Positions 26,182-39,668 of a DNA stretch of 64,000 nt are shown here, piece after piece. Both the position numbers and the translations under genes were made by a program. The number at the start of each line of letters is the position of its first letter. The stretch's first letter is position 1. The notes below the pieces were generated by a model. The model saw nothing but the letters and a program-made list of their open reading frames with translations, had not been told where the DNA came from and did no database searches. The DNA is from Schmidtea polychroa (lineage: Eukaryota): the NCBI GenBank assembly GCA_044892525.1, contig CM097885.1, positions 2,358,001 through 2,422,000 on the forward strand, read 5' to 3'.

Positions 26182-26269
26182 AGTAGTAGGATGTGAGCTC
26201 CCCAGACCATGTCCCCTCCAGATCACATATACCCCCTCCCCCCCCCCGGGAAAAAATTTTTTTTTTTTT

Positions 26270-28460
26270 TTAGAACGATGCCTAATATTTTTAGAACTAT
26301 TACGTAATCAATGCCTAATATTTTTAGAACGATGCCTAATATTTTTAGAACTATTACGTAATTTTTTTTAAATTAAGTGATCCAGCGGGGACCTACTTTT
26401 TTTCTTCCCAAAAGTAATGTTCCCGCCAACAAATTTTATTAACCGATACCTCATCTTCAAGCTCAGTCCAAGACCTTTCGAATGAGCTATAGGTATCTTA
26501 TATATCTTTAATAGTTTTAATGTTATTAACAATTGATGACCACCATCTTTTCAACGTTAAATTATTATTATTTTTCAAAATATTATTAAGTGATCCAGCG
26601 GGGACCTACTTTTTTTCATCCCAAAAATTATTGTTCCCGCCAACATATTATATTGATCGATAGCTTATTTTAAAGCTCTGTGCAAGAACTTTCTAATGAG
26701 ATATAGATTTTTATCATACGATGACTCATCACATTTTTAGAACAAAGACAATGACTCATCACATTTTTAGAATGATGCCTAATATTTTAGAATGATGCCA
26801 AATATTTTTAGAACGATGTCTATTATTTTTAGAATGATTACATCATACTTTTAGAACGATGCCTAATATTTTTAGAATGATTACGTCATAATTTTAGAAC
26901 GATGCCAAATATTTTTAGAACGATGCCTAATATTTTTAGAACTATTACGTAATCAATGCCTAATATTTTTAGAACGATGCCTAATATTTTTAGAACTATT
27001 ACGTAATTTTTTTTAAATTAAGTGATCCAGCGGGGACCTACTTTTTTTCATCCCAAAAATTATTGTTCCCGCCAACATATTATATTGATCGATAGCTTAT
27101 TTTAAAGCTCTGTGCAAGAACTTTCTAATGAGATATAGATTTTTATCATACGATGACTCATCACATTTTTAGAACAAAGACAATGACTCATCACATTTTT
27201 AGAATGATGTCTAATATTTTAGAATGATGCCAAATATTTTTAGAACGATGTCTATTATTTTTAGAATGATTACATCATACTTTTAGAATGATGCCTAATA
27301 TTTTTAGAATGATGCCTAATATTTTTAGAATGATTACGTCATAATTTTAGAACGATGCCAAATATTTTTAGAACGATGCCTAATATTTTTAGAATGATTA
27401 CGTCATACTTTTAGAACGATGCCTAATATTTTAGAATGATGACTATTATTTTTAGAACGATTACGTCATACTTTTAGAACGAAGCCTAATATTTTTAGAA
27501 TTAATAATTTTGTTTTAATTATCGATGATTATATAATTTTGTTTAAATCATTGATTATATAATTCTTTTGTTTTAATTATCGAATACGTAATAATATAAT
27601 TTTGTTTAAATCGTTGATTACATATTATTATTTTCTAAGTTTTATTATTATTATTATTATTATTATTATTATTATTATTATTATTATTATTATTATTATT
27701 ATTATCATATATACACCGAGTCTATCCGACAAAATATTCTGTCCCCCTATGGGTACTGCTCACAAGGGTACTGATCACCAGGGTACTGCTCACAATCAAC
27801 AACTCGCTAGGGTATTATTAGTATTATTAATAATGACTAAGATATTTTCAAAGAATTATTATTACAACTCCCAAGAATATTATTATTATTATTATTATTA
27901 TTATTATTATTATTATTATTATTATTATTATTATTATTATTATTATTATTATTATTATTATTATTATTATTATTATCATGTATTTTTAGAACGATGACTC
28001 ATTCGATGACTCATACGATGACTCATAAATTATTATTATTTGTCAAAATATTATTAATTGGCCCAGCGGGCTCCTGGTTTTCGTTTGCTCAAAACTTAAT
28101 GTTCCCACCAACAGATTTTATTGACCGATACCTCATCTTAAAGCTCAGTCCAAGACCTTTCGAATGAGCCATAGAAGGTATCATCATCATTATTATTAAC
28201 AAAGAGAATGACTCACCCAACGATGTCTAATACTTTTAGAACGATGTCTAATATTTTTAGAATGATTACGTCATAATTTTAGAACGATGTCTATTATTTT
28301 TAGAATGATGCCTAATATTTTTAGAATGATTACGTCATACTTTTAGAACGATGCCTAATATTTTTAGAACGATGCCAAATATTTTTTAGAACGATGCCTA
28401 ATATTTTTAGAATGATTACGTCATACTTTTAGAACGAAGCCTAATATTTTTAGAATTAAT
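26270..28460. repeat. Subterminal arrays of ~21-bp units (ttagaacgatgcctaatattt) and ~200-bp units (aagtgatccagcggggacctac...cccgccaaca...aaagctcagtccaagacctttcgaatgag) in the left arm; mirrored at 38740-39575
   Basis: The ~200-bp unit starts at ~26374, 26588 and 27020, with a diverged copy at ~28058. Reverse-complement copies lie at 39135-39470. Confidence 0.9.
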
Positions 28461-37110: not shown

Positions 37111-39668
37111 TCTTGATTTTTATCGTTTAAATAGTGTGTGTGATAAGTTTTATTTACTAACCCTAATTAATATACCCTTGCGACATGTTGAATGTGAGTA
37201 GTACCTTTGTGAGCAATACCCTTAGGGGGACAGAATATTTTGTCGGATAAACTAGGAGTATATACACCCATGTTAAACAAGGTATGTGTATATAGAATGT
37301 ATGTATAAAATTATCGCTCCATATTGACAACTTCCTGTAAAGGCAAACACAGAATACTGCAAACATAATAATACTCTACCCCATAACTTAGTGTGTAAAA
37401 ATTATTTAAGGTTTTTTCACTAATAATAATAATAATTATAATAATAATAATAATAATAATAATAATAAAGTTTAATGGATTGTATATGTGTGTAAAAAAT
37501 ATTTGAGGTTTTCACGAATATTGTTACAAATAATTGTTAATGGGTTGTGTGTGTGTGTGTAAAAATATTTTAGGTTTTTAATATTGATAATAATAATAAT
37601 AATAATAATAATAATAATAATAATAATAATAATAATAATAATAATAAAGTTTAATGGGTTGTATATGCGTGTAAAAAATATTTGAGGTTTTCACGAATAT
37701 TGATAATAATAATGGGTTATGAGTGTTTTTATGTTTTTGACTAATATTTGCAATAATAATAATGGTTAATGGGTTGTGTGTGTGTGTGTAGAAAATATTT
37801 TAGGTTTTCACTAATAATGATAATAATAATGGTTAATGGTTGTGTGAGTGTAAATAATATTTTAGGTTTTTGACTAATATTTGCAATAATAATAATAATA
37901 ATAATAAGTTTAATGAGTTGTATGTGTGTGTGTAAAAATATTTTAGGTTTTTAATATTGATAATAATAATAATGGTTAATGGGTTGTGTGTGTGTGTAAA
38001 AAATATTTTAGGTTTTCACTAATAATGATAATAATAATGGTTAATGGGTTGTGTGTGTGTGTGTGTGTGTGTGTGTGTAGAAAATATTTTAGGTTTTTAA
38101 TACTGATAATAATAATAATGGTTGAGGGGTTGTGTGTGTAAACCATATTTTAGATTTTTCATTAACAATAATAATAATAATAATAATAATAATAATAATA
38201 ATAATAATAACTCCCGCGCGTGTTAATACTTTAAAAGAAAATATTGAAAATTTAAAAAAATAATAATATTTATGCAAAGTATGTGCAATAATTATGTCTT
38301 TGTTAATTAAGTAAACTTTAGTGTCAAAATAAGTTTTTAAAATATTTTTAAATTTAAAATACCGCAACTTAATATATTTTTGTTCTACCCCTTCATTGAT
38401 TTAAGTTGGTCAGAATTTAATAATAATTATATTATACCCTTTGAGACTTGTTGAGTGTGAGTAGTACCCTTGCTAGCAATACCCATAGGGAGACAGAATA
38501 TCTTGTCGGATAGATTATATATATAATAATAATAATAATAATAATAATAATAATAATAATAATAATAATAATAATAATAATAATAATAATAATAATAAAA
38601 CTTAGAAAATAATAATATGTAATCAACGATTTAAACAAAATTATATTATTACGTATTCTATAATTAAAACAGAAGAATTATATAATCAATGATTTAAACA
38701 AATTATATAATCATCGATAATTAAAACAAAATTATTAATTCTAAAAATATTAGGCATCGTTCTAAAAGTATGATGTAATCATTCTAAAAATATTAGGCAT
38801 CGTTCTAAAAGTATGACGTAATCGCTCTAAAAATATTAGGCATCGTTCTAAAAATATTTGGCATCGTTCTAAAAATATTAGACATCGATTACGTAATAGT
38901 TCTAAAAATATTAGGCATCATTCTAAAAATAATAGACATCGTTCTAAAATTATGACGTAATCATTCTAAAAATATTAGGCATCATTCTAAAATATTAGAC
39001 ATCATTCTAAAAATAATAGACATCGTTCTAAAAATATTTGGCATCATTCTAAAATATTAGACATCATTCTAAAAATGTGATGAGTCATTGTCTTTGTTCT
39101 AAAAATGTGATGAGTCATCGTATGATAAAAATCTATAGCTCATTAGAAAGTTCTTGGACTGAGCTTTAAAATAAGCTATCGATCAATATAATATGTTGGC
39201 GGGAACAATAATTTTTTGGGATGAAAAAAAAGTAGGTCCCCGCTGGATCACTTAATAATATTTTGAAAAATAATAATAATTTAACGTTGAAAAGATGGTG
39301 GTCATCAATTGTTAATAACATTAAAACTATTAAAGATATATAAGATACCTATAGCTCATTCGAAAGGTCTTGGACTGAGCTTGAAGATGAGGTATCGGTT
39401 AATAAAATTTGTTGGCGGGAACATTACTTTTGGGAAGAAAAAAAGTAGGTCCCCGCTGGATCACTTAATTTAAAAAAAATTACGTAATAGTTCTAAAAAT
39501 ATTAGGCATCGTTCTAAAAATATTAGGCATTGATTACGTAATAGTTCTAAAAATATTAGGCATCGTTCTAAAAAAAAAAAAAAATTTTTTCCCGGGGGGG
39601 GGGGGGAGGGGGTATATGTGATCTGGAGGGGACATGGTCTGGGGAGCTCACATCCTACTACTCCTAAG

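Follow-up and report, generated by a model that had tools for sequence, protein, structure and literature searches.

The closest described relatives of the element reported here are the Polintons or Mavericks (polintoviruses, adintovirus-like elements), with which it has in common a 6-bp target-site duplication (TSD), (AGT)n ends of the form 5'-AG...CT-3' and the inverted arrangement of these ends, the ends themselves being common to a gene-bearing helper element. The element occupies positions 26182–39662 (~13.5 kb) of a 64,000-nucleotide stretch of Schmidtea polychroa DNA (GenBank assembly GCA_044892525.1, contig CM097885.1, positions 2,358,001–2,422,000 of the forward strand), hereafter the window; it has AGTAGTAGG ends and the internal layout A-X-B-Y-B'-A'. 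It differs from Polintons as described in being gene-less and in that one inverted repeat takes up ~70% of the window copy and almost the whole of a standard copy of its family, whereas the inverted ends of the helper compared here measure ~1.5 kb; moreover, its interior is unmatched in two autonomous Polintons. We consider it probable that the element is one copy of a ~1,000-member family of gene-less, non-autonomous Polinton palindromes that is maintained by the replication-linked mechanism proposed below.

A further comparison is provided by the copy-back or snap-back defective genomes, which likewise have helper-type tips, have lost their genes and consist of duplicated sequence in inverted orientation flanking a short unique loop. 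By analogy, the likeness may extend to the size relation, at ~81% of the helper, and to dependence on helper proteins. The genomes of adenovirus incomplete particles, studied by Daniell in 1976, reportedly carry long inverted duplications of one end. The present elements are, however, germline-integrated, transposed, TSD-bearing and ~1,000 in number, rather than products of lytic infection, and their body has no match in the helper genome beyond an end region of ~1.5 kb and a 75-bp motif. Foldback-type transposons (Drosophila FB; Galileo) likewise have very long inverted ends composed of tandem repeats and code for little or nothing; they also differ greatly in structure from copy to copy and tend to cause rearrangements. 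In contrast to these, the TSD here is 6 bp, the helper is a Polinton rather than an element with a P- or MULE-type transposase, and the arms are mostly complex unique sequence and not just satellite-like repeats. Tlr1 of Tetrahymena is similarly Polinton-related with long and complex inverted ends, but it is rich in genes and now classed as a Polinton-like virus family, whereas the present family is gene-less. One account notes that Tlr1 has 'sometimes' been seen as a non-autonomous Polinton (PMC5499653), and a preprint puts forward a hairpin-primed model of replication for virophages that have terminal palindromes (bioRxiv 10.64898/2026.07.28.741278). In the titles, abstract openings and some passages of the literature on non-autonomous, miniature and palindromic Polintons, no gene-less Polinton family of palindromic form was found described.

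Such a family is of interest because genes have so far been nearly the only basis for inferring how Polintons replicate. A derivative without genes depends entirely on sequences acting in cis for its persistence and thereby reveals which of them are required; those indicated here are a terminus of ~60–85 bp, the 75-bp motif and 21-bp repeats. At ~1,000 copies of 12–14 kb, the family would make up ~1.5–2% of the 781-Mb genome, with each copy a large perfect palindrome, a sequence class known to break chromosomes and to confuse assemblers. It also offers a natural test case for virus-style satellite–helper dynamics among virus-like transposons in animals.

Termini, insertion and a gene-bearing helper

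Both junctions of the element were read directly. The left junction is ...ttgttgCCTAAG|AGTAGTAGGATGTGAGCTCC... at 26176–26181/26182, with CCTAAG directly before 26182, and the right junction is ...GGAGCTCACATCCTACTACT|CCTAAGgtt at 39662/39663–39668, so that the AGTAGT ends and the perfect 6-bp TSD (CCTAAG) reported in an initial annotation, made from the sequence alone, are borne out. The termini (AGTAGTAGG... and ...CCTACTACT) are inverted, conform to 5'-AG...CT-3' and show a short terminal reiteration; the inversion is perfect over the outermost 56 nt and has 1 mismatch in the next 380 nt. The left terminus (26182–26266) is presumed to serve as origin of protein-primed replication and as integrase site. 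A search of the genome with the 400-bp left flank returned no paralogous empty site, since this flank is single-copy. In the assembly, which comprises 781 Mb with four large chromosomes, the terminal 27-mer (2 mismatches allowed) has 546 matches, 266 forward and 280 reverse, against 0 for the reversed-pattern control, and the family termini fall into at least two variants, AGTAGTAGGATGTGAGC... and AGTAGTATGATTGGAGC.... At C1:266246041–266255877, five exact terminal 27-mers, all on the minus strand and ~2,453 bp apart, form a tandem array of a terminus-containing unit.

The same termini enclose genes in a 16,788-bp element at C2:45566856–45583643 (sequenced as L046+L047; TSD ATATTA), which we refer to as the helper; both of its ends have 2 differences from the window element in the first 58 nt. 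A 1,388-aa open reading frame (ORF) of the helper matches pPolB (PF03175, E = 1.5e-28), and the helper also encodes an integrase with rve and chromodomain, a Pox_A32-type ATPase and a TBP-like ORF. A further ORF of 427 aa has no direct Pfam or PHROG match, but its nearest Atlas clusters carry the double-jelly-roll family PF21738 in 15–24% of their members, and it is on this basis likely to be the capsid gene; neither a protease nor a minor capsid protein was found among the helper ORFs. All 40 of the scored copies of the helper integrase gene have an identity rounding to 100%, which indicates that the helper family is young and abundant. Beyond the termini, helper and element are ~80% similar over a repeat-rich end region of ~1.5 kb, where the similarity stops. 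The inverted end of the helper has at its inner edge a single motif of ~75 bp (CCGAGTYTATCCGACAA...GGGTAYTGCTCACAA), of which the window copy contains at least four in its left arm. The initial annotation had placed the element among gene-less, non-autonomous Polintons/Mavericks inserted by an integrase, and the helper-type ends together with the 6-bp TSD agree with this; it had also held that the assignment would fail if no element bearing pPolB and an integrase shared the termini, and the helper does share them.

Protein-primed polymerase genes are numerous in this genome, with at least 91 matches to PF03175 above cut-off, many in open frames of ~1,400 aa. For the full-length polymerase frames of ~1,390 aa (L044:2677–6843 (−) and L047:2408–6571 (+)), hmmscan gave only a weak Endonuclease_7 match, while a 500-aa sub-fragment from L047 gave PF03175 at E = 1.5e-28; whole-protein scans of long frames can thus miss the polymerase domain. 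The TBP-like protein of the helper is short (L046:2578–3054 (−); PF00352, E = 2.5e-15). The second autonomous locus examined (pol1, L043–L045, 28 kb) was set aside as a relative, having only simple repeats in common with the element and no ends that could be found; a Bcl-2-family frame lies near it (L044:8777–9232 (−); PF00452, E = 1.3e-7). Pairs of pPolB genes were also observed 7–10 kb apart, minus-then-plus, with the same scores and the same open-frame lengths (for example C1:235384712/235393695, C3:32534493/32544220, C1:126058387/126068737 and C1:139680126/139687007). Their inverted orientation and identical scores suggest that gene-bearing Polintons in the same genome also form inverted duplications.

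The element itself is devoid of recognizable genes. Its longest stop-to-stop frame (144 aa) lies inside a TAT repeat, none of the 37 element frames of ≥60 aa scored above the Pfam cut-off, and in tblastn searches with the helper ORFs the only matching frames of the element were repeat-derived pseudo-frames in the end regions. The absence of replication, integration and capsid ORFs noted initially is consistent with these searches. No frame has a polymerase or integrase match, and the element is for this reason not an autonomous Polinton and is classed as a non-autonomous derivative. No transfer RNA was found in it, and the other RNA-family signal, besides a sub-threshold head of 7SL RNA, is a weak small nucleolar RNA-like match.

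Layout of the window copy and standard form of the family

Repeat finding, self-BLAST and global alignment of the two halves gave the following layout (window positions, strand in brackets):

26176–26181 (no strand): left TSD CCTAAG, identical to 39663–39668
26182–26266 (+): left terminus, starting with AGTAGTAGGATGTGAGCTCCCCAGACC, then runs of C, G, A and T homopolymers
26182–31783 (+): A, the left arm, 5.6 kb, from global alignment of the halves
26182–27764 (+): outer left arm, tandem repeats of 21/43/64 bp with unit ATGCCTAATATTTTTAGAACG; mirrors 39662–38471
27765–29143 (+): 'L-type' segment found in the left arm only, 1.38 kb, mostly reiterated end-region modules; unpaired with the right arm
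29144–31783 (+): A-inner, the inner left arm; mirrors 37579–35020
29938–30036 (−): copy of the 5' head of 7SL (signal recognition particle) RNA, Rfam RF00017, 29.6 bits; mirrored copy at 36767–36865 (+)
31784–32995 (+): X, 1,212 bp, in the left half only here; mirrored on both sides in other copies
32996–33672 (+): B, the innermost arm segment; mirrors 35019–34343
33673–34342 (no strand): Y, the unpaired palindrome loop, ~670 bp
34343–35019 (−): B', the inverted copy of B, from repeat finding and global alignment
35000–35035 (no strand): junction of the X' deletion between B' and A', containing a duplicated filler of 12 nt, GTGAATATTTTA
35020–39662 (−): A', the right arm, 4.6 kb, from global alignment of the halves
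35020–37579 (−): A-inner', the inner right arm, from repeat finding, self-BLAST and global alignment
37580–38470 (−): 'R-type' segment found in the right arm only, 0.89 kb, with TAA/TG microsatellites and a 143-bp tandem repeat
38471–39662 (−): outer right arm and right terminus (...CATCCTACTACT), from sequence reading and alignment
39663–39668 (no strand): right TSD CCTAAG, from sequence reading

The segment sizes given for this layout by the initial annotation match the alignment within tens of bases, but its figure of only ~1.9 kb of unique sequence is too low because, beyond X and Y, the segments 27765–29143 and 37580–38470 and a 378-bp block are also unpaired. The two mid-arm segments show ~45% mismatch when aligned with each other, and the 378-bp block is a repeat block carried by the left arm and absent from the right arm in the global alignment. 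The inner arms, in contrast to these unpaired parts, are complementary over 2,121 nt at 100% by repeat finding (3 mismatches in 2,118 nt by global alignment), and B and B' have 7 mismatches in 677 nt by global alignment. The 21-bp unit occurs 25 times forward and 13 times reverse in the element, allowing 3 substitutions, versus 0 in 20 shuffles. The score of the 7SL head is below the gathering score of 70, good alignment being limited to the first ~45 nt. For loop Y, the best 40 genome matches are 97–100% identical.

The window copy belongs to a large family. A 27-mer from the inner arm (GTTCGCG...) has 2,028 matches in the genome, 1,021 forward and 1,007 reverse, whereas the control has none, and among the first 100 matches listed, 66 form 33 'plus then minus' pairs <12 kb apart while 34 are unpaired; the spacing within pairs has a median of 7.9 kb, compared with 7.2 kb in the window copy. 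These counts and the inverted pairing imply a family of roughly 1,000 elements. Nine gene-less copies were sequenced (the window copy and eight others), in addition to the helper, a second Polinton locus and portions of a nested one. Perfect and distinct 6-bp TSDs flank eight of the nine gene-less copies, including the window copy, the ninth lying in an (AT)n run where the TSD is ambiguous. Seven further copies each have their own perfect duplication (ATCAAG, ATTGTT, ATATTG, GGCCTG, TTAATG, TACACT and CTCATA), in line with the earlier expectation that other copies would be found with different TSDs. Among 27 end-to-end pairs of exact termini, the median length is 13,639 bp and 18 fall within 11–16 kb.

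Comparison of copies reveals that the standard form of the family is one giant palindrome, A-X-B-Y-B'-X'-A', with arms of ~5.5–7.6 kb and a loop of ~0.7 kb. X is mirrored on both sides in four copies (c2_136, c1_479, c4_434 and c1_135), in which the arms are unbroken up to the ~0.7-kb loop, and a Y-type loop is central in c2_136, c1_479 and c1_135. The palindrome arms extend over 5,491 nt at 99.56% identity in c1_135 and over 7.6 kb at 98.9% in c2_136.

The asymmetry of the window copy is a private feature. Its junction reads ...GTGAATATTTTAAGTG + AATATTTTAT + ACTAAATCAC..., the middle piece duplicating the adjacent GTGAATATTTTA, and the loss of X' appears, from these letters, as expected of a 1,212-bp end-joining deletion with templated insertion. 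The 36-nt junction (35000–35035) has a single occurrence in the 781-Mb genome. It is covered without difference by a 68-nt contig from a public run (run X1, possibly the source sample), which spans 34980–35047; the public-run contigs are 60–190 nt long and none extends across an arm, the private junction (X1) and the loop edges (run X2) being covered, but not with 31 nt on each side. Run X8, guessed to be RNA, holds short pieces of the arms, which is no evidence on expression. Because X is present on both sides elsewhere and the junction is unique, the arrangement A-X-B-Y-B'-A' is a deletion derivative and not the outcome of two successive fold-backs. The initial reading of nested palindromes, grown by template switching, is accordingly not supported; the family has a single palindrome, from which the window copy differs by a private 1,212-bp deletion. 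Other private deletions were observed in c4_196, which is without X and B on the opposite side, and in c1_204, which is without most of one arm.

Concerted evolution of the arms

The two arms were compared over a 1.8-kb inner-arm segment in the six copies that have both arms, with c1_204 contributing one arm; c1_340 has no match of ≥1.2 kb and was left out. Arm-to-arm identity within a copy is 99.94–100% in all six, while identity between copies is 95.4–98.5% over 72 comparisons. In a maximum-likelihood tree, both arms are paired in each of the six copies, three of the pairs having 100% bootstrap support and three consisting of identical sequences. The inner arms thus evolve in concert, being alike within a copy and diverged between copies, which is a signature expected of a single-stranded, self-pairing intermediate or of a strand-switching polymerase.

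The timing of this process can be addressed through 20 positions at which the two window arms carry a state that nearly all other sampled copies lack. The two-arm state of the window lineage recurs at 18 of them in the copy at C1:204.36 Mb, whose terminus is of the other variant; the remaining two belong to the window copy alone, and at one position the window arms differ from each other. Since 18 of the 20 states are common to a copy at another locus, the two-arm symmetry was set in the mobile lineage before insertion into the window. Symmetry of the arms prior to insertion fits a replication-linked process, but is no proof of one.

The middle of the arms follows another pattern. The R-type segment is present on both arms of five copies (c1_340, c1_204, c2_136, c4_196 and c1_479), and among the eight other gene-less copies a full-length L-type segment is found on only one arm of c4_434, at 95.9% identity.

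Two loci are rearranged in ways of their own. At C1:204.36 Mb (L050–L051, C1:204355454–204368559), the member has one A-inner arm and a duplicated X-B-Y-B'-X' core, and it joins the inner-arm lineage of the window copy (99.6%) to the other terminus variant, a mixture of inner arm and terminus that indicates recombination between subfamilies. At C2:136000770–136026700 (L031–L033 and L056), mirror symmetry continues for at least 3.5 kb into the left host flank at 100% identity. The inverted flank follows directly after the right end, and ~5 kb further on lies a solo right end of 1.3 kb with a TSD, ATCAAG, that matches the left side. This locus reflects either a mis-assembly or a chromosomal fold-back that is very recent and has the loop as its centre.

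Proposed mechanism and alternative explanations

The following mechanism would account for these observations. The terminal-protein/polymerase system of the helper would start replication at the reiterated AGT AGT AG ends, much as adenovirus uses a protein-primed start at repeated CAT triplets that permits jumping back. Each displaced single strand of the palindrome would then snap back into a long hairpin, in which mismatches between the arms may be corrected, or one arm recopied from the other, keeping the arms alike; the folded strand would also offer a duplex tip for second-strand synthesis. The helper integrase would cut the target with a 6-bp stagger and insert the double-stranded product. 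As to its origin, the palindrome most probably started out as a copy-back (strand-switch) product, or as an inverted dimer, of a short end-bearing fragment. A copy-back origin of the long arms is plausible, although a parent with giant ends would arrive at the same structure by internal deletion. The modal size of ~13.6 kb corresponds to 81% of the 16.8-kb helper and, by analogy, suggests that there may be selection for a capsid-filling length. In adenovirus, helper-dependent genomes of less than ~75% of full length rearrange to grow (PMC12111873).

A bolder possibility, which we regard as doubtful though worth stating, is that the elements are germline fossils of a defective-interfering-like satellite of an endogenous Polinton virus, packaged in helper capsids. 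The heritable unit of such a satellite may effectively be one arm plus the loop, from which the protein-primed polymerase of the helper may regenerate a capsid-filling palindrome in each round, with the helper integrase carrying out insertion, and the element may by now outnumber any single helper lineage. If true, the family would provide the first direct sequence read-out of Polinton replication in an animal, and the genome would contain a permanent supply of long hairpin RNA directed against Polinton ends.

Several observations weigh against replication-linked maintenance of helper-dependent palindromes. The nine gene-less copies sequenced are a small sample of ~1,000. Similarity to the helper is confined to the terminal ~85 bp, the 75-bp motif and, at ~80%, the adjoining ~1.5 kb; the 21-bp unit, so frequent in the element (25 + 13), is nearly absent from the helper (1 + 1), and A-inner, X, B and Y match neither of the two autonomous Polintons compared. 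One arm of the window copy bears an L-type segment and its counterpart an R-type one, which implies that an arm is not always rebuilt wholly from its partner, and this mosaic requires that recombination between family members occurs too. Identity of the arms could also come from chromosomal gene conversion. Of the 20 derived sites, two occur in the window copy alone and thus give no indication of when their change was copied to both arms. The locus at C2:136.00 Mb indicates that a chromosomal fold-back or a mis-assembly can yield such symmetry, and no extrachromosomal or replicating form was seen in the public-run contigs, which are only 60–190 nt long.

An alternative is an origin without any copy-back, in which an autonomous parent with giant inverted ends of 6–7 kb lost all of its genes while the ends and a 0.7-kb remnant, Y, stayed behind. 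Internal deletion is the usual origin of non-autonomous DNA transposons, and the four or more reiterations of the helper's end-boundary motif in the left arm indicate that ends can grow by duplication; butterfly Polintons with enlarged, gene-bearing inverted ends of ~2 kb are described in a preprint (bioRxiv 10.1101/2025.02.07.637071). The sole helper with these ends, however, has inverted ends of only ~1.5 kb, and no parent with A-X-B ends was found among the two autonomous families and one nested locus inspected, so that we judge this origin unlikely. It is even harder to attribute the palindrome to the host, with arms kept identical by gene conversion on the chromosome rather than by replication of the element. 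Sex-chromosome palindromes have their arms kept identical in this way, the arms here are 99.94–100% identical in six of six copies, and the symmetry extending 3.5 kb into the flank at C2:136.00 Mb indicates that chromosomal processes act on these loci. Yet the 18 of 20 two-arm changes that recur at another locus place the symmetry before insertion, and the indels, the X' deletion and the L/R-type difference of the window copy have not been homogenised, which makes this explanation quite improbable.

The remaining two alternatives concern what kind of object the palindrome is. Were it a foldback-type transposon of another superfamily (Foldback, or Galileo of the P superfamily) and Polinton-like at the tips only, TSDs of 7 bp, as in Galileo, or of 9 bp, as in Foldback (FB), would be expected, but they are 6 bp in eight of nine copies; moreover, an element that encodes an rve integrase and pPolB has the same termini, with 2 of 58 nt different. 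Long, internally repetitive inverted ends without coding capacity are the hallmark of Foldback and Galileo (PMC3573991), but against the TSD length and the helper this resemblance leaves such an assignment very improbable. The least credible explanation is an assembly fold-back, with a mirrored half arising from chimeric long reads. Palindromes do provoke fold-back chimeras, the C2:136.00 Mb locus, which mirrors 3.5 kb of flank at 100%, is possibly such an artefact, and the public-run contigs include no spanning reads. On the other hand, the window copy has distinct unique flanks with a matching TSD, its arms are unequal (the 1,212-bp deletion, the 378-bp indel and the different mid-arm segments), the layout recurs at eight other loci with their own TSDs, and inverted-pair elements number roughly 1,000 in the genome; we give an artefact of this kind almost no weight.

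One locus was considered as a candidate for the giant-end parent, its arms lying 22.9 kb apart around Polinton genes, but it proved to be a standard palindrome with a different Polinton inserted in one arm. The nested Polinton (L053–L055, C1:6864801–6881300) has a capsid ORF (PF21738, E = 6e-26) and an A32-type ATPase, and its integrase has, in front of rve, a domain resembling phospholipase A2 (PF08398, E = 4e-9). The 22.9-kb arm spacing recurs 276 kb away, which indicates that the composite as a whole has been duplicated or has moved.

Among the host genes of the window, the clearest is an intronless DEG/ENaC (amiloride-sensitive sodium channel) gene of 567 aa (PF00858, E = 9e-45) at 54395–56098 (−), 15 kb from the element.

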